DNA of 64,000 nt from Acidobacteriota bacterium (GCA_039191605.1 JBCCXL010000003.1:257543-321542); one strand, 5' to 3'. Counted from the stretch's first letter, positions 12,301 to 64,000 are shown. Notes: a model not told the origin generated them from the sequence alone. Program-made: numbers and translations.

Positions 12301-12453
12301 GGGTAGAACTAGACAGCATCCTTAGAAACCTTCACTGGGAAGCATTACCGGGGGGTATGACGGGGAGCAGCGTGGGAGTTGTCTGACGATGCGTCTCGGC
12401 AGAGGCTGAGCGCCTCCCCTGCCTCTCCCGTCGCTGACCCGAGAGGAAACACC

Positions 12454-12684
12454 ATGGATATCGAAAAGCTCAAGCAGGTCTACGCCGCTCTGGATTCCCT
12501 CGACGATCGGATGAGCTACAAGGTGCGTCCCCGAACCGGTGGCGGCCTCAGCCGGCCGAGCGTCGAGCAGCTGGAGGAGAAGCACCGGCAGCTGGCGGAG
12601 TTCACCCTCGAGCTAAAGGACATTGTGAAGGCGCTCATCGTCGCCGTCGGCTCCCGCCCCAAGGCTCGTCCGGCCAAGCCCTGA
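12454..12684 (+). CDS. Hypothetical small protein (76 aa)
   Basis: ORF with the GAGAGGAAACACC ribosome-binding site before the ATG at 12454. It ends 14 nt before the downstream permease gene. No family recognised. Confidence 0.4.
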   Translation: MDIEKLKQVYAALDSLDDRMSYKVRPRTGGGLSRPSVEQLEEKHRQLAEFTLELKDIVKALIVAVGSRPKARPAKP

Positions 12685-12697
12685 GCGACTAACGCCC

Positions 12698-15202
12698 GTG
12701 GACCCCTGGCTGCAGGATGTGCGCACCGGATGGCGCTCCCTGTGGCGGCATCGGCGCATCAGCGTCGCTGCCGTGCTCTGCATCGCGCTCGGGGTGGGGG
12801 TCAACAGCGTCGCCTTCTCGACCATCGACGGCCTGCTCTTCAAGCCGCTGGATCTTCCCGCGGCTCACCGTCTGGTGACGGCCTACGTCTCTTGGCCCGG
12901 ATTCGAGCACGCCAGCTTTTCCTTCGCCAACTACCGAGACATAGAGCGCGACAACGAGGTCTTCGAGAGCTTCGCCGCGGCGCGCTTGGTCACCGCAAGC
13001 GTGGCTCCCAAGGCAGTCTCGTCAGGTCGAGGAGCATCCAACGCCGGGGTAACTGAGGGCGTAGCAGCTGAGGCCGGCGCCCAGCGGCTGATGGCGCAGC
13101 TGGTCACCGCCCACTATTTCGACGTCCTGGGGGTGGCTCCGGCGCGCGGGCGAGCTTTTCAGGGCGATAGCGACGAGCTGATCGGAAGCCCTGCGGAGGT
13201 GATTCTGGGGCACGATTTTTGGCGCCGGAGATTCTCGGTAGAGGAAGAGGTCCTCGGCGAGACCCTGCGCATCAACGGGCGTCCCTTTCGCATCATCGGC
13301 ATCATGCCGCGAGGGTTTCACGGCACCTATCGCCTGGTGCGGCCGGACGTCTACCTACCGGTCACCATGGCGCAGCTGCTGGTGCCGAAGGCCAATCTCG
13401 AGAATCGCGGCAATGGCTGGCTGCTCTCCGTGGGGCGTTTGAGTCAGGGGGTGAGCATCGATCAGGCGCGCGCGAGTCTGAACCGCCTGGCGGAGGGGAT
13501 GGAGCAGCAGCACCCTCGACTGCTGGACGGTTGGGGGCTGACCCTGGTCTCCGGGGGTGAGCAGGATCTCCCTCCCCCATTGCGCTCCCGGTTGGCCTCC
13601 GCGTCTCGATGGATCCTGGCCCTCGCTGCCCTCGTCCTGCTGGTGGCCTGCGCCAACGTTGCCTCTCTGCTCCTCGCTAGAGATGAGGGGCGACGCCGGG
13701 AGTTGGCGATTCGCCGCGCCCTCGGGGCAGGCTTTGGGCGCTTGTCGAGGCAGCTAGTGACGGAGAGCGGGCTCCTGGCGCTCCTCGGCAGCACCGCCGC
13801 CTTGTCCCTTGCCTGGGTCTGTAGCCGGTGGCTGCCGGCAGCGCTGCCGGATCATCTGCCGGTGCGGATGGAACCTGCCCTGGCTCCCGATGGTCGGGTT
13901 CTGGCCTATGCCTTGGTTCTTTGTCTGGTGACCGCGGTGGTCTGTGCTCTGGCCCCGGCGCTACGGGGGGCGAGGGGGGAGATCTACTCGGCCCTGGGGT
14001 CGAGAGGGCGAGCTAGCGGTCGGCGAAGGTGGGGCTTGGGAAGCTTTCACTCCACTCTGGTGATCGCTCAGCTCGCTCTCTCGCTGGTGCTGTTGGCGAG
14101 CGCCGGTCTCTTTGTGCGCTCCCTGCAGCAGGCGCAGAGGATCGACCCCGGGTTTCGTTCCGAAGGGGTTCTACTGGCGGCCATCGACCCTTCTCTAGTG
14201 GGGTACGACGAGCCTCGTGGGCGCGAGCTCTACGATCGCCTTCTGCAGCGAGTGGCGAGCCTGCCGGGGGTGGAGTCGGCGGCCCTCGGTGAGGTGGTGC
14301 CGTTAGGGGTTGGCGGGGGGCAGCAGCGAGGGATCTTGGTGGAGGGGTACGAGGCGGCGCCGGATGAGCGCATGAACCCCGACTTCAACGTGGTTGGCAG
14401 CGGCTACTTCGAGTTGATGGAGATGGCTCTTGTGGCGGGGCGGACCTTCGATTCCACCGAGACGCCCGGATCTTTGCCGACGGTGGTGGTGAACCGCACC
14501 ATGGCAGAGCGCTATTGGCCCCCAGGGGAGGCGGTGGGAGGGCGGTTGAGCTACGGTGGCCCCTGGGCTCGAGTGGTGGGGGTGGTGGAGGACATTCAAT
14601 ACCAGAGCCTCGGAGAGGCTCCCCGGCCCTACCTTTATCTGCCTTGGGAGCAGGTTTGGGAGGCCTCCATGGAGCTCCATGTGCGCAGCCAGAGTCCGGC
14701 GGATCAGCTGGTGCCGCTGTTGCGCCGGGAGGTGGCGACCCTGGACCCGGCGCTGCCGGTGTTTTCGGTGCGTACCCTGCGGGAACACACCGCTTCTGCC
14801 CTCTACTTGCCTCGCCTCGGGGCCGGCTTTGTCGGTGCTTTCGGCCTGCTGGCGCTGGGGCTAGCGGTGGTGGGGCTAGCGGGGGTGATGGCCTACGGAG
14901 TGCGGCGGGCGCGCTCGGAGATGGGCATCCGAATCGCCCTGGGGGCTGATCCGCGGAGAATCTTCTGGCAGGTGCTGCGGCAGGGCCTGAGCGTGGTCTC
15001 GGTGGGCGTCGCCCTCGGCCTGCTGACGGCGGTAGGCGTCGGCCAGCTGCTGGCGGGCTTTCTCTACGGTACCTCCCACGCCGATCCGGTCACCCTAGGG
15101 CTGGCGGCGGGCTGTTTGGTGCTCGTCGCCGCGGTGGCGGTTTCGGTGCCTGCGCGCCGCGCGATGAAGGTGGATCCGGTGTCGGTGCTGCGGGAGGAGT
15201 AG
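12698..15202 (+). CDS. Duplicated FtsX-domain ABC permease (MacB-like; ADOP 'acidobacterial duplicated orphan permease' type)
   Basis: 834 aa with a GTG start. N-terminus ...WRSLWRHRRISVAAVLCIALGVGVNSVAFSTIDGLLFKPLDLP... There are two FtsX-like 4-TM modules, each preceded by a large extracytoplasmic domain. No adjacent ATPase gene. Confidence 0.8.
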   Translation: MDPWLQDVRTGWRSLWRHRRISVAAVLCIALGVGVNSVAFSTIDGLLFKPLDLPAAHRLVTAYVSWPGFEHASFSFANYRDIERDNEVFESFAAARLVTASVAPKAVSSGRGASNAGVTEGVAAEAGAQRLMAQLVTAHYFDVLGVAPARGRAFQGDSDELIGSPAEVILGHDFWRRRFSVEEEVLGETLRINGRPFRIIGIMPRGFHGTYRLVRPDVYLPVTMAQLLVPKANLENRGNGWLLSVGRLSQGVSIDQARASLNRLAEGMEQQHPRLLDGWGLTLVSGGEQDLPPPLRSRLASASRWILALAALVLLVACANVASLLLARDEGRRRELAIRRALGAGFGRLSRQLVTESGLLALLGSTAALSLAWVCSRWLPAALPDHLPVRMEPALAPDGRVLAYALVLCLVTAVVCALAPALRGARGEIYSALGSRGRASGRRRWGLGSFHSTLVIAQLALSLVLLASAGLFVRSLQQAQRIDPGFRSEGVLLAAIDPSLVGYDEPRGRELYDRLLQRVASLPGVESAALGEVVPLGVGGGQQRGILVEGYEAAPDERMNPDFNVVGSGYFELMEMALVAGRTFDSTETPGSLPTVVVNRTMAERYWPPGEAVGGRLSYGGPWARVVGVVEDIQYQSLGEAPRPYLYLPWEQVWEASMELHVRSQSPADQLVPLLRREVATLDPALPVFSVRTLREHTASALYLPRLGAGFVGAFGLLALGLAVVGLAGVMAYGVRRARSEMGIRIALGADPRRIFWQVLRQGLSVVSVGVALGLLTAVGVGQLLAGFLYGTSHADPVTLGLAAGCLVLVAAVAVSVPARRAMKVDPVSVLREE

Positions 15203-54703: not shown

Positions 54704-55672
54704 CTATTTCCCGTTGCCGCTGGGGGCCGAGAAGCCCCCGCGGTTGTTCCGCGGCCCGGTCAAGGGGCGCTGCTGAGGCGGCGCCACGCCGGGGGCTCGC
54801 TGGGTCTGGGGAGCGTTCCGGGGCGTGTCCTGAGGCATTCTTTGGGGGATCGGGGGATGCCGCTGCCCCGGCGCCTGGAAGTAGCCCGGAAGCAGTCCGC
54901 CGAACACGCCGGCTCCCTGGGGGAAGATCGCCTCCGGCGCTAGACCGAGGGGGTCGAGGCCAGGAAGTCCATAAGATTGAACGGGTTGGGCGGCATAGCC
55001 GTCATGGCTGAGGTTGCCCTCGTCGTCGGGGCTGTCGAAGGTGCGGTAGAGCAGATCCAGCCGTTCCCGGTCTAGATTGATCTGCTGCTGCATCAACCCC
55101 TGCTGCCGGCGAACCAGGCGCAGACCCTCGTCCCGCACCGCCAGCTCTCGGGCCTCGTCGCGGGAAACCCAGCGGTCTCCGTAGCGCACCTGCCGCCGCG
55201 AGGCGCGGTATTCCTCTTCGGTCATCCACCGGCCGTCCACCTGCTGCTGGCCGATGGCGGCCCGCGCTTCGGTGCTCTCCGGCGCTAGATCCACCGTGTT
55301 GTCGCGCACCTGACGGGCGAGGGTGTGGTTGCCGTAGCCCTCCACCCAGTCGGCGATGGCCAGGCGCCCGGCAACGTCGTCTTCCGGCAGCGCGTTGAGC
55401 GCGCTCCACACCGTCGACTCCAGGGAGTCCGCCCGCTGGATCCGCTCCACGTTCTTCGCCGAGAAGATCATCGTGCCGAAGGATGCGTCCAGCTGAATTC
55501 GCCCGTCCTCCAGCACCGTCACCGTGCCTTCCATGGTGCGGCCGTTCTTCATCGTGATCACGTCGGCGCCGAGGGGGGCCGAGATCAAAACCAGAAGAGC
55601 GGCGAGTAGGCAGACCAGGGCCGCGCTCGGAAGGGAGAGGCTGGAGAGGCGAAGGCGGGGAAAGAGCTGCAT
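54704..55672 (-). CDS. Hypothetical secreted protein (Gln/Pro-rich C-terminus)
   Basis: The signal peptide is MQLFPRLRLSSLSLPSAALVCLLAALLVLISAPLGA. AGGAGGATCCGCC precedes the ATG at 55672. Confidence 0.45.
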   Translation of the reverse strand: MQLFPRLRLSSLSLPSAALVCLLAALLVLISAPLGADVITMKNGRTMEGTVTVLEDGRIQLDASFGTMIFSAKNVERIQRADSLESTVWSALNALPEDDVAGRLAIADWVEGYGNHTLARQVRDNTVDLAPESTEARAAIGQQQVDGRWMTEEEYRASRRQVRYGDRWVSRDEARELAVRDEGLRLVRRQQGLMQQQINLDRERLDLLYRTFDSPDDEGNLSHDGYAAQPVQSYGLPGLDPLGLAPEAIFPQGAGVFGGLLPGYFQAPGQRHPPIPQRMPQDTPRNAPQTQRAPGVAPPQQRPLTGPRNNRGGFSAPSGNGK

Positions 55673-55818
55673 GGCGGATCCTCCTGGCATCGTGTCGGAC
55701 GAGCGGGGTGGGCTCAGATCAGATCGCTGGAAAGACTCTACCGACGGGGAGAGGTCTCGTCAAAGTGGGGAGTGAAGTAGGAAGACACTGCGCGTCGTGC
55801 GGCAGATGCTGGCGCCAT

Positions 55819-56874
55819 TCAGCTTCGTGGTGGGCTCTGGCCGAGGATCGGCAGGGCCGGATGGCCGGCTCCGGGAGCGCCAGCCCCCGGAATGGAGTTG
55901 CCGCTCACCGGCTCGCCGCCGCGGTCGCTGAGATCGCTGAGGTCGAAGTGACGGGCGAGGAATTCATCGCACCACAGGCAGATGTTGCCGAGCTCGTCGG
56001 AGCGCTGCCGCCCGTGCTCTTCGGAGATCCCCAGGGATTCGCCCATGCCGTAGGCGTCACCCTGGTTGAGGGCTTTCATCACCGGGTGGTCGGCGACCCG
56101 CCGCAGCACTTCGCTGACCTTCTCCACTCGAGCATCGCCGAGGGGGTCGTGGGTGCCGGGGCAGCAGGGGTTGATCCGCCACAGCTGGATGGAGATCTCC
56201 TGGGGCAGCTCGGTGTCGCCGAGGAAGCCCCGGGCGCCGGAGAGGATGGCGCAGAAATTATGGCTGCCGTCCTGCTTCCAGATGCCCTTCTCCATCGCTC
56301 GGCCGCGGGCCCAATTGCCCCCCAGCCACATGTCTTCGGTGGCTCCCCAGAAGCCGAAGCTCACTTCCCGCTTGAGGTAGTCGTCCTTGCTGATCAGCGG
56401 ATCTGGCGCGTCGTCCACCATGCCCCGGGAGCGGAAGAGCTCGGTGAGGATCTCCTGCCGCTGCCCTTTTTTCTTGTGGTAGCGATCGATGGAGGCGATA
56501 TCGATGCGGGTCACCCCCCGCTCTAGGATTTCGTCCAGGCGCTTCTCGTTGAGCAGGTCGCCGTTGGTTTGCAGCATCACCTGGATGCTGCCGCCGTAGC
56601 GCTCCTGCAGCGCTTCGAGAATGGCGTAGAGCTTCTTGCGCTCCGCCAGCGGCTCGCCGCCGGAGAGGATCAGCCGATCCATGCTCGCCGGCAGGTTCTC
56701 GACGATGGCCAGGCAATCCTCCAGGGAGATGGTGGCGCCGCGAGGACCGGAGAGGTTGTAGCAGTGATCGCACTCGTCGTTGCAGCGCTGGGTGAAGACC
56801 CAATACACGGACTCGCAGTGGTCGTAAGGGCGGGAGTCTTTAGGACGAGAATTGTCGGCGGTGGAGTCGCTCAT
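55819..56874 (-). CDS. Radical SAM domain protein (unassigned subfamily)
   Basis: The CxxxCxxC cluster motif is FTQRCNDECDHCYN. The glycine-rich SAM motif is ...LILSGGEPL.... Length 351 aa. No C-terminal SPASM-type Cys clusters. It overlaps the upstream ATPase gene by 4 bp. Confidence 0.75.
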   Translation of the reverse strand: MSDSTADNSRPKDSRPYDHCESVYWVFTQRCNDECDHCYNLSGPRGATISLEDCLAIVENLPASMDRLILSGGEPLAERKKLYAILEALQERYGGSIQVMLQTNGDLLNEKRLDEILERGVTRIDIASIDRYHKKKGQRQEILTELFRSRGMVDDAPDPLISKDDYLKREVSFGFWGATEDMWLGGNWARGRAMEKGIWKQDGSHNFCAILSGARGFLGDTELPQEISIQLWRINPCCPGTHDPLGDARVEKVSEVLRRVADHPVMKALNQGDAYGMGESLGISEEHGRQRSDELGNICLWCDEFLARHFDLSDLSDRGGEPVSGNSIPGAGAPGAGHPALPILGQSPPRS

Positions 56875-57794
56875 GAGGATGCCTTCGCGGGAGTGGTCGG
56901 TGCCGATGAGTCGAGGGAAGAAGCGCTGGGGGCTTTCCCTTGGGAAGTCTGTAATTCAGGAGCCTGTAGTTCAGGAGTCTGTGGTTCAGGAGCCTGGACG
57001 CCGGGAGATGCCTCGGAGGGCGTCTCGGGAGGTTCCTCAGGAGGTACCGCGGAGGGGGCCTCGGCTTGTCTCTCTAACCGGATCCAGAAGTCCATTTCTT
57101 CCTTCACCCCCAGACGAGGGTCGTGGACCAGCTGCTGAAGACTATCGAAGACCCGGAAGCGCCCCTTCTCCAGATGCCCTACCCGATGCCCCATCTTGAT
57201 CGCCTCTTTGAGGTCGTGGGTGACGAAGAGAGCCGGCAGCTGGCGCTGCTCGGCGACCTGCCGAAAGAGCTGCTGCATGCGGGCGCGGGTATCGGTATCG
57301 AGGGCGCCGAAGGGCTCGTCCAGCAGCAGCAGCTTTGGCTCTACCAGCAGCGCGCGGCCAAAGGCGACCCGCTGTCGCTGGCCGCCGGAGAGCTGATGGG
57401 GGGCCTTGTGGGCGTGCTCGCTGAGCCCCAGCTCTTCCAGCATCTGCTCTACTCGCGGGCGAATCTCGCCCTTGGAGCGCCCGCGGACCTCCAGCCCGAA
57501 GGCGAGGTTGGCGGTGACGTCGAGGTGGGGGAAGAGCAGCGCCTCCTGGTAGAGGTAGAGCACCCCCCGGCGCTGCGGCGGCAGCGGGTCCAGGGCCTCT
57601 CCCGCCAGGGTGACGGAGCCGGCGTCCGCCGACTCCAGGCCGGCGAGGATCTTGAGCAGCGTGGTCTTGCCGCAGCCGGAGCGCCCCACCACCGCCAGGG
57701 TCTCGGCGCCTTCCAGGCGCAGGGAGATGTCCTGCAGCACGCTCTCGCCGCCGAAGGCCTTGCTCAGGCCGTGGACCTCGAGGAGCGGCGTCAT
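56871..57794 (-). CDS. ABC transporter ATP-binding protein (importer type)
   Basis: Walker A GRSGCGKTT, ABC signature LSGGQRQRV and Walker B LLLDEPFGALD are present. The C-terminal tail is Pro/Glu-rich and repetitive (PELQAPELQT). Confidence 0.85.
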   Translation of the reverse strand: MTPLLEVHGLSKAFGGESVLQDISLRLEGAETLAVVGRSGCGKTTLLKILAGLESADAGSVTLAGEALDPLPPQRRGVLYLYQEALLFPHLDVTANLAFGLEVRGRSKGEIRPRVEQMLEELGLSEHAHKAPHQLSGGQRQRVAFGRALLVEPKLLLLDEPFGALDTDTRARMQQLFRQVAEQRQLPALFVTHDLKEAIKMGHRVGHLEKGRFRVFDSLQQLVHDPRLGVKEEMDFWIRLERQAEAPSAVPPEEPPETPSEASPGVQAPEPQTPELQAPELQTSQGKAPSASSLDSSAPTTPAKASS

Positions 57795-58588
57795 CGACTG
57801 ACTCCAAAGGAGGGCGCCGCCCGGCGATTGAGCAGCACCAGCACCAGCGGCGGCAGCACCAGCAGGCAGCTGGCCAGGGCGGCGTAATAGGGGTTGGCTT
57901 CTCGCACGTAATCGAAGACCTTGAGCGGCAGCGTCTTGACCCGGCCGCCGCCCACCAAGAGAGTGAGGCCATACTGGAACCAGGAGATCAGGAAGGCCTG
58001 GAAGAAGCCTACCGCTAGCAGCCCTCGGGAAAGAGGCAGCAGCGCTCGGCGGTAGGCCGTCCAGGTGGAGCCCCCAAGAGTGTAGACCAGCTCTTCGTAG
58101 GCCTGCTTCTGGGGGGTCCAGAAGCCGATGAAGAAGATCACCGCGAAGCCGTAGGAAAACATCGTCTGGGCCAGGGCGACTCCCCCGGCGGTGCCGGCGA
58201 GATCCAGCCGCAGGTAGAGAAAGAGCAGGCAGGTGCCGAGGATCACGGGGGAGAAGGCGAAGGGAATATAGGCCAGCAGCAGCAGCCGGTGGCGGTGGGG
58301 GGAGAAGGCGATGGCCTTGGAGGTGAGATAGCCGGCGGCGGTGGAGACCGTCGCTACCGCCAGGGAGAGGGTGATCGAGAGCACCAGGCTCTCCAGCAGG
58401 GCTCCGCGACCGCTGAACAGCTCCCCCCAGCGCTCGCCGGTGAGCTCGGCGGGCCAGGCCTGCCCTGCCGGCCAGCGGGTGGCGATGGAGAGCAAGATCA
58501 GCACCGCCACCGGAGCCACGCAGCCCACCGCCACGGCGAGGCTGAGGAGCCGCCGCTGGAGTCTTCCCTTCTCCTCCCCCTCAGCCAA
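57791..58588 (-). CDS. ABC transporter permease (PotC/ThiP-like, 6 TM)
   Basis: Polytopic with the EAA-like loop region ...YTLGGSTWTAYRRALLPL.... Overlaps its neighbours by 4-8 bp. Confidence 0.75.
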   Translation of the reverse strand: MAEGEEKGRLQRRLLSLAVAVGCVAPVAVLILLSIATRWPAGQAWPAELTGERWGELFSGRGALLESLVLSITLSLAVATVSTAAGYLTSKAIAFSPHRHRLLLLAYIPFAFSPVILGTCLLFLYLRLDLAGTAGGVALAQTMFSYGFAVIFFIGFWTPQKQAYEELVYTLGGSTWTAYRRALLPLSRGLLAVGFFQAFLISWFQYGLTLLVGGGRVKTLPLKVFDYVREANPYYAALASCLLVLPPLVLVLLNRRAAPSFGVSR

Positions 58589-59450
58589 GGGAGCCTCCCT
58601 CCTGGGGCAGGCGGCGCACCAGGGCGAGGAGCAGGAAGACCACTGCGGTGTAGATCAGCGCGAGGACATAAGCCTCGGGGCGCTCGGCGAGGTCGAAGAG
58701 GGCGAATTTCCGGTAGGTCAGCACCGAGAGCATCTGTGGGGTTTGGCGCCCCAGCAGCAGCGGAATCTCGAAAGAGCCGAGCACCACGATGAAGAAGAGC
58801 ACCAGATTGGTGGAGGCGCGCCGCAGCAGCACCGGCACGGTGACCCGCCACAGCACCTGGGCGCGGGAGGCTCCGAGGCTGGTGGCCAGGGTCTCCAGCT
58901 CGCTCACCGCCTCGGTGCGGTAGAGCTCGGCGAAGAGCAGGGCGAAGAAGGGAATCGCCAGGGCGACGTGGGTGGCGACGATCCCCAGGGCCCAGGGGTC
59001 GTGGACCATCGGCACCAGCTCCCCGGAGGGGGTGGCAATGCCGAGGGTGGCCCCGAGGGCGGAAACCCAGCGCTCCACCAGCCCGCCGCCGACGAAGAGC
59101 TGAAAGGTCAGAAAGGCGGCGACGGTGCCGGGGATCGCCAGGGGAACGTAGAGCAGGGCCGAGAGCGGGCCCCGCTCCAGCGGGCGGCGCAGCAGCAGGG
59201 CGAGGGCCAGGGCGGCGCTGGTGGTGAACAGCAGGGTGGTGGTGGCGACGTGGAGGGAGAGCAGCAGCGAGGTCCACAGCTCCCGGCGCTGGAGCATCGC
59301 CAGCCAATGCTCGGCGGTGATGCCCTCGCTCAGCAGGCCGACGGCGCCGATGCTGTAGAGCAGGGCGTAGCCGAGGCTGAAGCCCACGGGGGCGGCGACC
59401 ACCAGCATCAGCAAGGCGATCCCCACCCGGTCCGGCAGCCTCGGCTTCAC
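58581..59450 (-). CDS. ABC transporter permease (PotB-like, 6 TM)
   Basis: Polytopic, with ...ATSLGASRAQVLWRVTVPVLL... as the EAA loop. Confidence 0.75.
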   Translation of the reverse strand: MKPRLPDRVGIALLMLVVAAPVGFSLGYALLYSIGAVGLLSEGITAEHWLAMLQRRELWTSLLLSLHVATTTLLFTTSAALALALLLRRPLERGPLSALLYVPLAIPGTVAAFLTFQLFVGGGLVERWVSALGATLGIATPSGELVPMVHDPWALGIVATHVALAIPFFALLFAELYRTEAVSELETLATSLGASRAQVLWRVTVPVLLRRASTNLVLFFIVVLGSFEIPLLLGRQTPQMLSVLTYRKFALFDLAERPEAYVLALIYTAVVFLLLALVRRLPQEGGSLG

Positions 59451-59454
59451 CCCT

Positions 59455-60735
59455 TTAGCTCTCCAGCAGTCGGCGGCGCACGTCTTCGTAGAGTCGAATC
59501 ATGGTCTCCGGGGCGGGTTCCTGCAGCGCGTAGGCTCGAATCTCTTCCCGCTTCGGCGACCGCTCCCGCTGGGGGATCTCGCCGAAGCGCTGGGGCCAGG
59601 GCTCCGGCAGGCGCTGGACGTCCAGCACCGTGCCGTCTCCCCACACCGCCGGCTTCATCTTCTCGTATTGCGCCTCCGCGGAGAGCAGGAAGTTGATCGC
59701 CACCAGCGCTCCGGCGCTGTGCTGGCCTCCCTTGACCAGCCCCAAATAGTGGCTGTTCTGGATCGTTCCGGACTCCAGGACGTAGGCCCGGGAGCTCTGC
59801 GGCAGGATGCCCTGGAGCACCTTGTTGTCCACCTCGCCATCGTTGTTGCTCATGGTGAAGTCCACCTCGCCGTTGGCGAAGAGCTGATGGAGCTGGGCGA
59901 CCTCTGTGGGCAGGGTTTGCCCCTGTTTCCACAGGAAGGGCTGGATCTCTTCCAGGTAGGCGAAGAGTCGATCGCTGGCTTGGGCGTAGCGCGCCTCGTC
60001 GAAAGGACCGTCCAGAGAGCCGGGGCCCCCGGCGAAGTGGATCAGCAGGGATTTCAGGAAGGTCATCCCGGTGAAGGCGGTATCGAAGCTGAAGCGCCCC
60101 GGGTTCTCCCGCGCCCACTGAGCCAGCTCCTCGGGGTTGCGGGGCGGCTGGGCCACCCGCTCCGAGTCGTAGATCAGCGCCAGCTGCACGTTGCCCCAGG
60201 GGGCTTCGTAGCCGTCCACCGGCTGCTGGAAGTCGTAGGCGATGAAGGGGTTTTCAAAGTCGATGGCCGCCGCCGAGGGCAGCTTGTCGGTGAAGGGGCC
60301 GGCGAGGGCGTCGATCTGCCGCAGCTGATAGAAGGTCTCGCCGTTGATCCACACCATGTCCAGATCGCTGCTGCCCTTGCCGGCTTCGAGCTCGGTGAGC
60401 AGCAGGTTGACGATCTGATTGCCCTGGGCGCTCACCACGTCCAGCTGAATGTCGTAGCGCTCTTTCAGCTGCTGGCTGACCCAGCCGGAGACGTAGGCGT
60501 TGATCTTGGGGTCCCCGGTCCACATGCCCCAGGTCACCCGCTGACCGCGGGCCTGCTCCTCGATCTGCTCCCAGGAGAGCTGCAGCAAATCCTCCGGAGT
60601 CGTCGACGGGGTTTCCCCGCCGCCGCAGCCGGCGAGGAGGCTGGCTCCCAGCAGGAGAGCGACGAGGGCGGTGGCTCCGAAGGCCGTTCTTCCCGGCAAC
60701 CAGCTCAGGCTTCTCCAGGTTGGATCAGAACGCAT
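59455..60735 (-). CDS. ABC transporter periplasmic substrate-binding lipoprotein
   Basis: The signal peptide plus lipobox is ...ALLLGASLLAGCGG. At ~420 aa it is consistent with the solute-binding-protein family 1 fold. Confidence 0.7.
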   Translation of the reverse strand: MRSDPTWRSLSWLPGRTAFGATALVALLLGASLLAGCGGGETPSTTPEDLLQLSWEQIEEQARGQRVTWGMWTGDPKINAYVSGWVSQQLKERYDIQLDVVSAQGNQIVNLLLTELEAGKGSSDLDMVWINGETFYQLRQIDALAGPFTDKLPSAAAIDFENPFIAYDFQQPVDGYEAPWGNVQLALIYDSERVAQPPRNPEELAQWARENPGRFSFDTAFTGMTFLKSLLIHFAGGPGSLDGPFDEARYAQASDRLFAYLEEIQPFLWKQGQTLPTEVAQLHQLFANGEVDFTMSNNDGEVDNKVLQGILPQSSRAYVLESGTIQNSHYLGLVKGGQHSAGALVAINFLLSAEAQYEKMKPAVWGDGTVLDVQRLPEPWPQRFGEIPQRERSPKREEIRAYALQEPAPETMIRLYEDVRRRLLES

Positions 60736-63700
60736 AGCTCACCCCGAACTGGAACTGCCGCGGCGGCCCGGCGTTCTTGCGCTCGATGCCGGCGCTGCGC
60801 GGCCCCACCTGGATCTGGTTGCTCTGGGTGGCGTTGTTGCTGAAGCCCGAGAGGTTGGTCTCGTTGAGCACGTTGAAGACGTCCACCCGCAGATCGATGT
60901 TGCGGCCGGCGATGGGCAGGCTGTACTGCAGGCTGAGATCCAGGACCTCCGACCACGGCAGGCGGTCGCTGTTGCGGGCCTCGCCGGGCTGACGATCGCT
61001 GTTGCCGACGTAGGCGTCGCCGAAGGAGCGGCCGTCGCCGTTCAGGTCGGTGGTGCCGAAGATGCGGGCATCGGGGATGCGGTTGATGGGCTGGCCGCTC
61101 TGCAGCAGCACGGCGGCGGAGACCGAGAAGCGATCGGTGGGGTGGTACTGGAAGATGCCGCTGATGACGTGGGTGCGGTCGTTCAGGGACGGGCCCCACT
61201 CGGCGCCGAAGTTATTGGAATCCTGGGCCCGGAAGTTGATGTCGTCGGTGTTGTTCTCGAGCTTCGAGAGGGTGTAGGAGAGACGGAAGTTGTAGTTGTC
61301 CCGGGAGCGGCTCTTCACCAGGGTGAAGGTAGCGGCGCGGTAGCGGGCCTCGCCTTCCGCCTCGGAGATCACGATGTTGCGAGCTCCGCCGTCCCGCAGG
61401 GCCACCGGGCGAGTGGCGTCGGCCTCTTCCTGGGTGCGCACCTGGACGTTGTTGGGGTCGATGGGGAAGGGCGCCGGAGCGTTCAGATCCCGCAGGCGGA
61501 AGAGGTTGTAGGAGCGGGTGTGGATGAAGTCCACGTAGAAGAGCATGTCGTCCCGCAGCTGGCGCTGGAAGCCCAGGGAGTATTGCTCCGTCACCGGGTT
61601 GTCGTAGCCGTTGGGGTTGAGGATGCGGCGCTCGTTGCTGAAGATGTCCTCCCGCTGCCCCTGGATCTCGCCGGGAGTCGGTCCGCCGAGGTAGGGGACG
61701 TCGTCGAAGGAGGCGCCGAGGTTGCCGTTGAAGAGCACCTGGTCGATGTCCGTATCCGCCGGCAGGATGCCGAGGGCGATGAGGTCCTCGATCTGGGAGC
61801 GGAAGCCGGCGGCGGTGGAGCTCTGCTGCAGCGCGTCGCTGTACACCGCGTAGAGGATCTTGTCGTAGAACACGCCGAAGCCGGCGCGCACCGTGGAGCG
61901 ATCGTCGATGCGGTAGTTGGCCGCCAGGCGGGGGGCGATGTTGTCGCTGTCGCCGCTGCTGCTGCCGCCCTCCGACAGGCTGTCGTAATCCCAGCGCAGG
62001 CCGGCGGTGAGGGTGAGGTTGGGGTTCACCGCCCAGGTGTCCTCGGCGAAGACGCTCCAGAAATCCTGGGTCTCGCCGAAGGAGCGGGGCTGCAGCTCGA
62101 CGTCGTAGCGCACCACCTCGACGTCCGAGGGGATGTCGAAGATCGACAGGCCGGAGCCGAGATTCTGCGACGCCAGGGCGTCCTGCTGGGCCTGGGTGAG
62201 CTGCACCAAGTAGTTGCCGTCGACGTTGCCGCCGCCGAAGAGCTCGAAGTCGGAGGTGATCAGGCTGGCGCCGAGCTTCACCGTGTGGTCGCCGAGGAGC
62301 AGGGAGAGGCGATCCTGAATCTGCACCGTCTCCTCGCGGTTGTCGAAGATGAAGCCCGGATGGCCGAGCACCGCGATGGTCTGGCCGGCGGCGCCGAGAA
62401 CGTTGACCTGAGGTCCTTCGTTGTTGGGGCGGGCGTAGTTCCAGCGGAAGCGGCTGAACTGGATATCCGCCTCGTTGACCAGGTTCTCGGTGACGAAGCT
62501 GGTGCGCAGGGCGGCGAGGTAGGAGTCGCGGTCCTGGGTGTTGCCGGCGGAGGGGAAGGTCACGCCGCCCTCCAGGCCGCCGCCCTGACGCTCGATGTCG
62601 ATGTCACCCCAATTCACCCGCAGGGAGCTCTGGAAGGAGTCGCTGAAGCGATGATCCAGGCGGGCGGTGGCGTAGAGAAATTCGTTCTCGCCGGCCACCG
62701 TCTCGTTGATTCCCAGCTCCGGCACGTTGAGCAGGTTGTCCTTGTCGTCGAGGGTGTTCTCGACGTTGAGGAAGAAGAAGGTCTGGTCTTCGGCGATGGG
62801 GCCGCCGATGGAAATGCCGAATTGGTCGCGGGCGAAGCCGTCCCGCACCGCGTTACCGGAGAGGTCGCGGCCGGCGAAGGGAGAGCTGGCGTCGACGCTG
62901 GCGCCGGGGCGGGAGAGGTAGAAGACGTCACCCCGCAGCTGGTTGGTGCCGGACTTGCTGGTGACGTTGAACACCCCGTTGCCGGTGCGGCCGAACTCCG
63001 CCGTGTAGGTGGAGGTGAGCACGGTGACGTCCTGCACCGCCCCCAGGGGCACGGCGAACTTCTGGCCGCCGAGGAAGTTTTCGTTGTTGTCCAGGCCGTC
63101 GATCAGGTAGTTGACGTAGAGGGAGTTGGCGCCGTTCACGGAGACGTTGGGAGCCTCCGGATAGAAGCCCGTCGCCTGGCTGACGTTGGGCAGGCGATAG
63201 AGGGAGCGAGTGAGGTCACGGCCCTCCACCGGCAGCAGCGAGAGCTCCTGCTCCACCAGGGTGGAGGAGACCTCCGCGTTCACCGTGTTGAGAGCCACCA
63301 GCTGGGGCGCGGCGGAGACCGATACCTCGTCCTCGAAGGTCTCCTGCACCGACAGCCTTAGGGTGACGCTGGCGAAGGCGTTGGCCCGCAGGGTGATGCC
63401 GGTGAGCTCGGAGTTGCCGAAGCCTTCGGTGTCGACGTTGCGGATGCGGTAGCCGCTACCGGTGGTGAGGCCGCGGAAGATCACCCGGCCCTGACTGCTG
63501 GTCACCTCCTGGCGCACCAGGCCGGTGACGTCGTTGCTGAGCTCCACGAGGATTCCCCCGAGGGGTTCGAAGGAGTCAGCGCTGACCACCGAGACGTCGA
63601 GGTTGCCCTGGGCGTGGGCCGCCGGGGCTCCGAGCAGGAGAACGGCCGCGGCGAGAACCGCGAAGAGCACGCTCCGGGCCGCCCAGGGAGCGGCGGCGAG

Positions 63701-63958
63701 CTTGGTCTTGGCCGAGAAGGAAGAGGAGGCAGGGACGGGACGATCCGAGCTCGTGGGCTCAGGATAGACACAGTCAAAGAAGAGGCAGTCAAGAGATACA
63801 CAGCGCTGGGGCAACAAGGGACGATCCTCTCGGGCGCGACGCCGCAAGCATCGCGCGGTACAACTACTGGGAAGGGCCGAGCCGAGTCGGAGCAGAGAAG
63901 GCTCCGACGACCGCCGGAGGCGGTAGGGATTGGCCTTCGCAATGTCCGACACGAGCAA
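60725..63958 (-). CDS. TonB-dependent outer-membrane receptor with N-terminal carboxypeptidase-regulatory-like domain; true start uncertain (likely near 63700-63720)
   Basis: The signal peptide is ...RSVLFAVLAAAVLLLGAPAAHAQ, followed by GNLDVSVV...GGILVELSN...GRVIFRGL (CarbopepD_reg-like). Plug and barrel motifs are present. The C-terminus ...QFGVSYAF ends in Phe. No ATG follows the listed TTG-type start before the signal peptide, so an alternative start codon is probably used. Confidence 0.75.
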   Translation of the reverse strand: MLVSDIAKANPYRLRRSSEPSLLRLGSALPSSCTARCLRRRAREDRPLLPQRCVSLDCLFFDCVYPEPTSSDRPVPASSSFSAKTKLAAAPWAARSVLFAVLAAAVLLLGAPAAHAQGNLDVSVVSADSFEPLGGILVELSNDVTGLVRQEVTSSQGRVIFRGLTTGSGYRIRNVDTEGFGNSELTGITLRANAFASVTLRLSVQETFEDEVSVSAAPQLVALNTVNAEVSSTLVEQELSLLPVEGRDLTRSLYRLPNVSQATGFYPEAPNVSVNGANSLYVNYLIDGLDNNENFLGGQKFAVPLGAVQDVTVLTSTYTAEFGRTGNGVFNVTSKSGTNQLRGDVFYLSRPGASVDASSPFAGRDLSGNAVRDGFARDQFGISIGGPIAEDQTFFFLNVENTLDDKDNLLNVPELGINETVAGENEFLYATARLDHRFSDSFQSSLRVNWGDIDIERQGGGLEGGVTFPSAGNTQDRDSYLAALRTSFVTENLVNEADIQFSRFRWNYARPNNEGPQVNVLGAAGQTIAVLGHPGFIFDNREETVQIQDRLSLLLGDHTVKLGASLITSDFELFGGGNVDGNYLVQLTQAQQDALASQNLGSGLSIFDIPSDVEVVRYDVELQPRSFGETQDFWSVFAEDTWAVNPNLTLTAGLRWDYDSLSEGGSSSGDSDNIAPRLAANYRIDDRSTVRAGFGVFYDKILYAVYSDALQQSSTAAGFRSQIEDLIALGILPADTDIDQVLFNGNLGASFDDVPYLGGPTPGEIQGQREDIFSNERRILNPNGYDNPVTEQYSLGFQRQLRDDMLFYVDFIHTRSYNLFRLRDLNAPAPFPIDPNNVQVRTQEEADATRPVALRDGGARNIVISEAEGEARYRAATFTLVKSRSRDNYNFRLSYTLSKLENNTDDINFRAQDSNNFGAEWGPSLNDRTHVISGIFQYHPTDRFSVSAAVLLQSGQPINRIPDARIFGTTDLNGDGRSFGDAYVGNSDRQPGEARNSDRLPWSEVLDLSLQYSLPIAGRNIDLRVDVFNVLNETNLSGFSNNATQSNQIQVGPRSAGIERKNAGPPRQFQFGVSYAF

Positions 63959-64000
63959 AAGAGGCTGGGGTCGGGGCGAAGGTTGCTGTCGGTGGAGGCG

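Follow-up and report, generated by a model that had tools for sequence, protein, structure and literature searches.

In the anaerobic heme loci, a ChuA/HutA/HmuR receptor and an ATP-binding cassette (ABC) importer are encoded together with a radical S-adenosylmethionine (radical-SAM) enzyme, ChuW, HutW, or HmuW (PMC10114669, PMC10404700). Clostridioides difficile salvages queuosine, a micronutrient, with the importer QueT, the nucleoside hydrolase QueK, and the radical-SAM lyase QueL (10.1101/2023.12.05.570228), and ArsL, a CX3CX2C enzyme of the RCCLKC-tail subfamily, transfers an aminocarboxypropyl group and binds As(III) through a CC-containing tail (10.1101/2024.02.01.577332). The Escherichia coli ydjXYZ-ynjABCD operon is directly activated by FNR, i.e., induced under anoxia (PMC3688515), which fits an importer family used under anoxia; YnjBCD is an uncharacterised transporter in E. 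coli. Here we describe an operon in a 64,000-nucleotide stretch from an Acidobacteriota bacterium (GCA_039191605.1, JBCCXL010000003.1:257543-321542; hereafter the window) that encodes a TonB-dependent receptor (TBDR), a YnjBCD-type ABC importer, and a radical-SAM enzyme of a new clade. The six-gene operon recurs with little change in at least seven bacterial phyla. A dedicated uptake route, the cargo of which, or a product of that cargo, is handled by the new radical-SAM enzyme, is firmly supported, and the locus is probably a self-contained, horizontally spread "import-then-transform" module.

A scan of 185,579 species-representative genomes yielded 412 matched stretches encoding a relative of the radical-SAM enzyme. 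The best 80 of the 412, with 10-kb flanks, formed our locus set, which was analyzed by tblastn with the window proteins and by clustering of open reading frames (ORFs); for gene-content counts, we kept the 67 loci in which the sequence 5' of the radical-SAM gene extends for 7 kb or more. The usual gene order is TBDR, solute-binding protein (SBP), permease A, permease B, ATPase, and radical-SAM enzyme, and all six genes are collinear on the same strand in 53/67 loci. All four ABC genes are present in 59 of the 67, permeases A and B each keep their order in 60, and a TBDR gene, with orthologues 45-72% identical, lies upstream of the ABC genes in 57. Four loci have the TBDR gene abutting the radical-SAM gene without the ABC genes, and two Verrucomicrobiota loci (L047 and L067) have a large ORF directly upstream of the SBP gene that by eye looks like a TBDR of another type. 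Carriers belong to Acidobacteriota, Bacteroidota, Ignavibacteria/Kapaibacterium/Chlorobiota, Armatimonadota, Verrucomicrobiota, Myxococcota, and Balneola/Rhodothermales. They include the cultured Sulfidibacter corallicola, Acanthopleuribacter pedis, Fulvivirga sp. M361, and Pontibacter anaerobius, and an SBP relative is present in Rhodocaloribacter litoris. The protein collection contains more than 1,300 homologues of the radical-SAM enzyme, of which the best 120 are 62-77% identical; a 100% match (P0001) assigns the window to an Acidobacteriota metagenome-assembled genome. Between phyla, identities of 61-77% are evidence of strong selection and of a recent spread of the whole operon. A Pfam scan of the 133 nearest flanking ORFs detected scattered housekeeping families only, with no conserved ars, fur, pho, or regulator gene among them; with such unrelated surroundings, the module acts as a mobile, self-contained unit.

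The association extends to cousin radical-SAM clades. When the family profile was searched against 1.84 billion representatives, 45 clusters fell below 1e-30, followed by the cousin clades and then by a YydG-like tier that matches TIGR04078; with only 45 clusters below 1e-30, the family is tight. The P0266-type enzymes, sampled in 82 metagenome loci, are 31% identical to the window enzyme and have the same eight cysteines. A YnjB-type SBP gene comes right after the radical-SAM gene in 70/82 of these loci, and in most cases genes for a fused permease and an ATPase come next. Genes for a GT2 glycosyltransferase (TIGR04283) and a DUF2064 protein are found in ~20 of the 82, sometimes between SBP and permease, and less frequent neighbors encode an APH-like kinase (12/82), a cytosine-deaminase-family protein (8/82), a PRK08204 amidohydrolase related to 8-oxoguanine and 5'-deoxyadenosine deaminases (7/82), and an MFS protein (7/82). 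The P0249 enzyme (272 bits to the family profile) adjoins an IU-nucleoside hydrolase, a DUF547 protein, and an APH kinase. The P0265 locus (L086:5925-16093, plus strand) reads ECF sigma factor, zf-HC2 anti-sigma factor, TBDR, radical-SAM enzyme, SBP, fused permease, ATPase, TauE/SafE, and DUF2177; its two ends, with the sigma/anti-sigma pair and TauE/SafE, may point to regulation and to the efflux of an anionic by-product. The P0275 enzyme (L085) is preceded by an AhpC-like protein and followed by an ABC ATPase. The AhpC/TSA-like gene (L085:69-719, plus strand), called as two fragments, carries an in-frame TGA where the peroxidatic residue would lie (RW*PYC, a UxxC pattern) and therefore likely encodes a selenoprotein.

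These counts make the radical-SAM enzyme plus a YnjBCD-type importer the deep, constant link, to which the main clade has added the TBDR. Next in frequency come the TIGR04282/TIGR04283-type pair and nucleoside/sugar-phosphate enzymes. A preliminary description of the window, made from its sequence, had read the operon as import coupled to radical-SAM chemistry and had asked whether the two remain neighbors in relatives. They do, and the synteny in relatives and in the cousin clade supports this functional coupling well.

Six ORFs fill the minus strand of the window from 55819 to 63958 (Table 1), and the junctions are tight. TBDR and SBP genes overlap by 11 nt, SBP and permease A genes are separated by 4 nt, permeases A and B overlap by 8 nt, and both permease B/ATPase and ATPase/radical-SAM junctions are 4-nt overlaps, the latter ATGA. 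There is thus no room for small ORFs or a precursor-peptide gene. GC content is even across the operon, at 64-70%. The six minus-strand genes and their overlapping or near-overlapping junctions had been reported in the preliminary description and were recovered here as ORFs; the span given there, 55819-63958, is right for the ORF coordinates and probably not for the TBDR start, 63958 being the end of the maximal ORF. A signal peptide (LFAVLAAAVLLLGAPAAHA/QG) starts at about GTG 63670, and a partial ORF upstream, read in a different frame, stops at about 63864, so that the TBDR gene probably covers the shorter interval in Table 1.

The upstream ORF runs off the window edge. Its C-terminal translation ends in ...GQSLPPPAVVGAFSAPTRLGPSQ before the stop, with LPPP in the tail, and the operon-type DUF2064 proteins of relatives have in common an (R/L)(G/A/P)PP, or (L/H/R)R(G/A)PP, motif near the C terminus. 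In 43/80 loci the TBDR gene is immediately preceded by a DUF2064 gene, which in the nearest relative (L001) occupies the position matching the partial ORF. The partial ORF is probably the 3' end of a DUF2064 gene, a weak assignment from 44 residues only. Because of this resemblance the operon probably begins beyond the window end: it usually opens with a DUF2064 gene, here probably off the edge and hence invisible in the preliminary description.

Table 1. Positions of the operon genes and of the adjoining features in the window
Feature	Position	Strand	Basis
TBDR	60725-63670 (probable gene; maximal ORF to 63958)	(-)	Pfam matches and signal peptide
SBP, YnjB-family periplasmic lipoprotein	59455-60735	(-)	NF008633, lipobox
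Permease A, counterpart of the N-terminal half of fused E. coli YnjC	58581-59450	(-)	PF00528
Permease B, counterpart of the C-terminal half of YnjC	57791-58588	(-)	PF00528
ABC ATPase, YnjD type	56871-57794	(-)	PF00005
Radical-SAM enzyme, 351 aa, unnamed family	55819-56874	(-)	PF04055
Partial ORF, 3' end only, off the window edge	63864-64000	(-)	Frame translation
Spacer, 128 bp, operon 3' end	55691-55818	(-)	Sigma-70-like site
328-aa gene 3' of the operon	54704-55690	(-)	ORF

The uptake proteins were assigned gene by gene, and Pfam and NCBIfam agree with the TonB receptor and ABC importer (SBP, two permeases, and ATPase) of the preliminary description. The TBDR contains CarboxypepD_reg (PF13620), Plug (PF07715, E=4e-7), OMP_b-brl_4 (PF25183, 251 bits), and PF00593 domains, has a 22-strand type of barrel, and ends in ...SYAF with a final Phe; it thus combines the N-terminal plug, C-terminal β-barrel, and aromatic last residue of a TonB-dependent receptor. 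The SBP has an LLAGC lipobox and matches SBP_bac_8 and, at 395 bits against a cut-off of 203, NF008633/PRK11622. The latter alignment, residues 40-421 on profile positions 19-394 of 397, places it in the YnjB family, and its identity to E. coli YnjB is 36% (E=2e-66). Both permeases carry BPD_transp_1 (PF00528); the best NCBIfam matches are ModB, CysT, WtpB, and PhnU2-type proteins for permease A and PotC, ModB, and PhnV for permease B. The ATPase matches PF00005 (ABC_tran) at 119.6 bits, has a Walker A (GRSGCGKTT), a signature (LSGGQRQR), and a Walker B motif (LLLDEP), and is 35% identical to E. coli YnjD; its best NCBIfam matches, PotA, PhnT2, and PhnT, are all under cut-off. With a lipoprotein SBP, two BPD_transp_1 permeases, and an ATPase with all three motifs, this is a type I ABC importer. 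The ATPase C terminus (56871-57090, minus strand) is a ~70-aa, Pro/Glu/Ala-rich, low-complexity tail containing ...APEPQTPELQAPELQTSQ... that lies outside the aligned parts, as relatives cover approximately residues 1-240 and E. coli YnjD covers residues 4-198.

The preliminary description had suggested looking for a PotD, ThiB, or FbpA type of ligand signature in the SBP. No such class is recognizable, and the protein belongs to the separate, uncharacterised YnjB family. Among ligand-specific equivalog models only PhnS was matched, at 16 bits against cut-offs of 310-395, and the score was below all cut-offs; a search of PDB sequences gave one marginal match, to an agropine-binding protein. 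The AlphaFold2 model (pLDDT 91) has as its nearest PDB folds in Foldseek 5T1P, PhnS (4R6Y), FutA1, PotD, MctA, FbpA, and TbpA, all at ~15% identity, an even mix of aminoethylphosphonate, iron, spermidine, metal-citrate, and thiamin binders.

The radical-SAM enzyme matches Radical_SAM (PF04055) at 56.4 bits against a cut-off of 29.5 and, besides this, only the generic PF13353. Its CX3CX2C motif (C31/C35/C38), within CNDECDHCYN at residues 31-40 (nucleotides 56784-56755), is kept in 80/80 relatives. In an alignment of 24 homologues, S71-G72-G73-E74-P75 (SGGEP) and a Trp/Gly-rich block, FWGA..MWLGGNWARGRA, are invariant, as are the cysteines of the C-terminal domain in HNFC208, NPC237C238PGT, and C299xWC302DEF, spaced C208-x28-C237C238-x60-C299-x2-C302. 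All eight cysteines are unchanged in 80/80 loci, and none of the conserved cysteines is replaced by selenocysteine in 162 loci. The preliminary description had held that the enzyme lacks SPASM Cys clusters. Consistently, the SPASM domain (PF13186) was not matched at E<=0.01 and the C-terminal cysteines number only five, against the seven of the SPASM motif, which bind two auxiliary clusters; these five extra cysteines are nevertheless invariant in all 80 relatives, so the C-terminal domain is not devoid of conserved cysteines. No Pfam model exists for this Trp-rich domain (WGATEDMWLGGNWARGRA, NPCCPGT, CLWCDEF). From its sequence, it is probably a new, Cys-rich, twitch-like domain holding one auxiliary cluster and one spare cysteine. 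Twitch domains are shortened SPASM-like domains in which three or four cysteines bind a single auxiliary [4Fe-4S] cluster, and the C...C(C)...CxxC pattern presumably resembles the auxiliary-cluster ligands of BtrN.

The preliminary description could not place the enzyme in a named subfamily, and it belongs to none, with no NCBIfam family near its cut-off. The best NCBIfam matches (NirJ, W-cofactor maturase, AhbD, viperin, NrdG, HxsC, MoaA, and YydG) are far under their cut-offs and span just the N-terminal ~110 residues; profile searches of the PDB likewise gave core matches alone. TIGR04167 (ArsS) is not among the best 25 of 49 NCBIfam hits (to E=2.3e-5) and PF12345 is not matched; HemN, HemW, and ChuW families are absent from the same best 25 and from the Pfam output. 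Two specific identities were rejected. The peptide epimerase YydG/EpeE is contradicted by a TIGR04078 score of 25.4 bits against a cut-off of 300 and by the lack of room or of an ORF for a precursor peptide. ArsL, suggested by the vicinal Cys pair and by methylthioadenosine-salvage neighbors, is contradicted by the absence of an RCCLKC tail and of a family match. The AlphaFold2 model (pLDDT 80), with alternating strands and helices over residues 19-126, superposes on radical-SAM cores in the PDB, the best folds being EpeE/YydG, BtrN, CteB, MoaA, viperin, and SpeY (TM ~0.4-0.6). EpeE matched with E=2.6e-8 and TM 0.51-0.58, and BtrN with a TMt of 0.62; identity in the fold matches is 13-19% over the full length and up to 25% over the N-terminal core.

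Additional partner genes occur in relatives. TIGR04282 and TIGR04283, named "arsenosugar biosynthesis glycosyltransferases" by NCBI, are represented by above-cut-off proteins adjoining the operon in L016, L025 (as a fusion), L062, and L067, and by proteins identified through BLAST similarity in L047, L051, and L052. L016 and L025 thereby have a second, bona fide TIGR04282 copy (195-216 bits). An ArsM-like methyltransferase gene lies within the operon in L059, L016, and L052 (best match NF008823, 178 bits against a cut-off of 263). In L016 (12270-15982, plus strand), ArsM-like, arsR-like, second arsM-like, metallophosphoesterase, and aquaporin-like genes follow in a row and make up a complete arsenic island, of which the last four genes, from arsR-like to aquaporin-like, were named by eye. 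MTAP-like and MTR-kinase-like genes lie within the operon of L013.

Directly 3' of the radical-SAM gene, a conserved gene pair encodes X13 (~212 aa) and the His-rich X14 (~218 aa) in 21 loci (L002, L007, L009, L010, L013, L015-L017, L039, L047, L049, L051, L052, L055, L057, L059, L067, L069, L072, L074, and L076); the L016 island comes directly after X14. X13 has the motifs PNGSD, CFDGWFT.W.PG, and GISGWWACGY, and X14 has RHACWHTHG and several invariant His residues. A CxxC protein, X25, is encoded in six loci. None of X13, X14, and X25 matched Pfam, NCBIfam, or PDB sequences, and no relationship is detectable between X13 and X14. Just 3' of X14 in L015, a Kapaibacterium metagenome-assembled genome, there are four tandem copies of the Acido-Lenti-1 RNA (RF01687, 39-49 bits; 12443-12751, minus strand).

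On this basis a route can be proposed. A small, polar compound in scarce supply would pass the outer membrane by way of the TBDR, the YnjB-family lipoprotein would capture it in the periplasm, and the split YnjC-type permeases with the YnjD-type ATPase would carry it into the cytoplasm. There the translationally coupled radical-SAM enzyme, with its SAM-cleaving [4Fe-4S] site and probably one auxiliary cluster, would act on it; that is, we infer that the imported solute is the substrate of the enzyme. Small compounds bearing an amine or a heteroatom (As, Se, S, or P) are candidate cargoes, as are modified nucleobases and nucleosides. For the chemistry we favor, with low confidence, an ArsS/HpnH-like reaction that joins the 5'-deoxyadenosyl radical to the cargo. 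This adenosyl transfer is favored because the two transferase families that NCBI ties to the ArsS pathway accompany the window-type enzyme instead, because ArsM-like enzymes recur in the operon, and because enzymes that remove adenine and phosphorylate ribose recur as well. The nucleoside-type intermediate could then be trimmed and re-activated by DUF2064/TIGR04282, GT2 TIGR04283, nucleoside phosphorylase/hydrolase, APH-type kinase, and ArsM-like methyltransferase proteins. The boldest form of the proposal, in which YnjBCD-type importers bring in a heteroatom species (As, Se, S, or P) or an amine conjugate of one, the new clade replaces ArsS by joining the 5'-deoxyadenosyl group of SAM to it, and the partners yield an arsenosugar-like 5-substituted ribose metabolite, is rather unlikely; in that case a dedicated TBDR would have been added in outer-membrane-limited phyla.

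Several observations weigh against adenosyl transfer and against a heteroatom cargo. The nearest sequence and fold relatives, YydG/EpeE, BtrN, and SpeY, abstract hydrogen atoms and do not transfer adenosyl groups. The operon-type DUF2064 proteins score 85-92 bits on TIGR04282, under the 134-bit cut-off, and by eye appear to lack the G-x-V-K-T-R-L-like N-terminal motif of bona fide members, and the family names of TIGR04282 and TIGR04283 are themselves annotation by association. Partners of the adenosyl-transfer type are in the minority (ArsM-like 3/80, GT2 4/80, MTAP/kinase 1/80) and could merely recycle 5'-deoxyadenosine. The whole 64-kb window has the six core genes only, with no X13, X14, GT2, or ArsM-like gene. 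The fold search fails to separate ligand classes for the SBP, whose only conserved Cys is that of the lipobox, and a thiol-bound trivalent metalloid is therefore disfavored as cargo.

A tentative but serious alternative is a nutrient-release or salvage enzyme that abstracts a hydrogen atom, of the ChuW, QueL, or BtrN type (lyase, dehydrogenase, or epimerase), and so frees or converts a micronutrient, for example a modified nucleobase or nucleoside, an aminophosphonate, or an aminocyclitol; the nucleoside-processing neighbors would then work on the cargo or just recycle 5'-deoxyadenosine. The nearest named relatives and folds abstract hydrogen atoms and have a twitch-type or similar auxiliary-cluster domain, and the five invariant cysteines would suit four cluster ligands and one hydrogen-donor Cys, as in EpeE. 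Importers of the polyamine/aminoethylphosphonate group are the closest to the SBP and permeases, and the nucleoside hydrolase, cytosine-deaminase-like, and deaminase-like neighbors mirror the QueT-QueK-QueL logic (10.1101/2023.12.05.570228). Such an enzyme would, however, leave unexplained the recurrent TIGR04282/TIGR04283-type transferases and ArsM-like methyltransferases, and the expense of one SAM per turnover is high for bulk catabolism; QueL-, ChuW-, and PhnJ-like families are not among the best 25 of the 49 NCBIfam hits.

It is very improbable that the enzyme is a maturase that modifies a protein or peptide, such as a transporter component before export or the precursor of a ribosomally synthesized and posttranslationally modified peptide (RiPP), rather than an imported solute. 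Peptide modifiers (YydG/EpeE, CteB, SkfB, and anSME) are among the NCBIfam and fold neighbors, and homologues carry the JGI label "organic radical activating enzyme". However, the overlapping or 4-nt junctions leave no place for a precursor-peptide gene, Pfam and NCBIfam detected neither a RiPP recognition element nor a SPASM domain, the one conserved Cys of the SBP is used by the lipobox, the partners (kinase, phosphorylase, deaminase, and transferases) act on small molecules, and no RiPP-typical protease or exporter was seen among the flanking genes. Chance adjacency of the radical-SAM gene and the transporter operon has a negligible probability and is in effect excluded by the synteny data: the start/stop overlap with the ATPase gene, a linkage kept in 59/67 genomes across phyla, and its recurrence in two further radical-SAM subclades with other gene orders.

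At the 3' end of the operon, the spacer contains a promoter-like site for the next gene (55763-55735, a single sigma-70-like match) and no predicted terminator. The 328-aa downstream protein has a tail rich in Pro and Gln, and its N terminus weakly matches the N-terminal domains of the PTPDL family and of Leptospira LA_0442; no counterpart of its gene stands beside the radical-SAM gene in the 80 relatives. Upstream of the operon in seven loci, Rfam gave no riboswitch or leader RNA at gathering thresholds, and at E<=1 it gave just two matches in the window, both at chance level. Comparison by eye of the DUF2064-TBDR spacers found no common motif.

The constant partner of the radical-SAM enzyme is the YnjBCD importer family, which includes the FNR-activated E. 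coli transporter. Solving one member would therefore provide a substrate for a broad importer family together with a new radical-SAM reaction, and it would probably also clarify the "arsenosugar" transferases TIGR04282 and TIGR04283 outside ArsS cassettes. If true, the heteroatom proposal would be the first functional handle on the orphan E. coli transporter YnjBCD. There is a realistic chance of a new reaction and of a function for an orphan importer family, and since carriers exist among cultured organisms, the system is open to experiment. We found no paper on DUF2064 and none joining a radical-SAM enzyme to a YnjBCD-type importer; matches for YnjB, ynjC, and ynjD were to gene lists only, and the databases yielded no family or solved structure for the radical-SAM clade.

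The importer is of the same family as E. coli YnjBCD, as judged from the NF008633 match and the identities of SBP and ATPase. The E. coli system differs: its permeases are fused as YnjC, and it lacks both a TBDR and a radical-SAM gene. At the E. coli K-12 locus (NC_000913.3 1833401-1840774), genes for two DedA proteins, a 4Fe-4S protein, AhpD-like YnjA, and YnjBCD are followed by the rhodanese gene ynjE on the same strand, with none of the partner genes associated with the radical-SAM enzyme. The heme loci resemble the window operon in uniting a TBDR, an ABC importer, and a cytoplasmic radical-SAM enzyme that processes the imported compound. However, ChuW-type enzymes are class C, HemN-like methyltransferases, a family outside the window enzyme's best 25 of 49 NCBIfam hits, and while heme importers are type II and BtuCD-like, the one in the window belongs to type I, its permeases carrying BPD_transp_1 domains and its SBP being YnjB/PotD-like.

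In gene content, QueT-QueK-QueL is similar in combining an importer with a radical-SAM enzyme, and a cousin of the window enzyme adjoins an IU-nucleoside hydrolase and a kinase; QueT, however, is an ECF-type S component, unlike a TBDR with an SBP-dependent ABC importer, and no queuosine gene was seen near any examined locus. ArsL and the window enzyme both have a vicinal CC pair, whereas only ArsL has the RCCLKC tail. YydG/EpeE, BtrN, and SpeY provide the best fold matches and are enzymes with a twitch-type or similar auxiliary-cluster domain, but sequence identity to them is low and the Trp-rich C-terminal domain sets the window enzyme apart. The ArsS (TIGR04167) cassette is matched by the above-cut-off TIGR04282/TIGR04283 and ArsM-like proteins in or beside the operons of relatives and by the DUF2064 paralogue of TIGR04282 with which the core operon opens, while the window enzyme is not ArsS and the accessory genes are absent from the window. 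We know of no ArsS cassette with a dedicated importer. Operons that pair uptake with a processing radical-SAM enzyme are thus already known, and what is new is the radical-SAM clade described here and its tie to YnjBCD-type importers.

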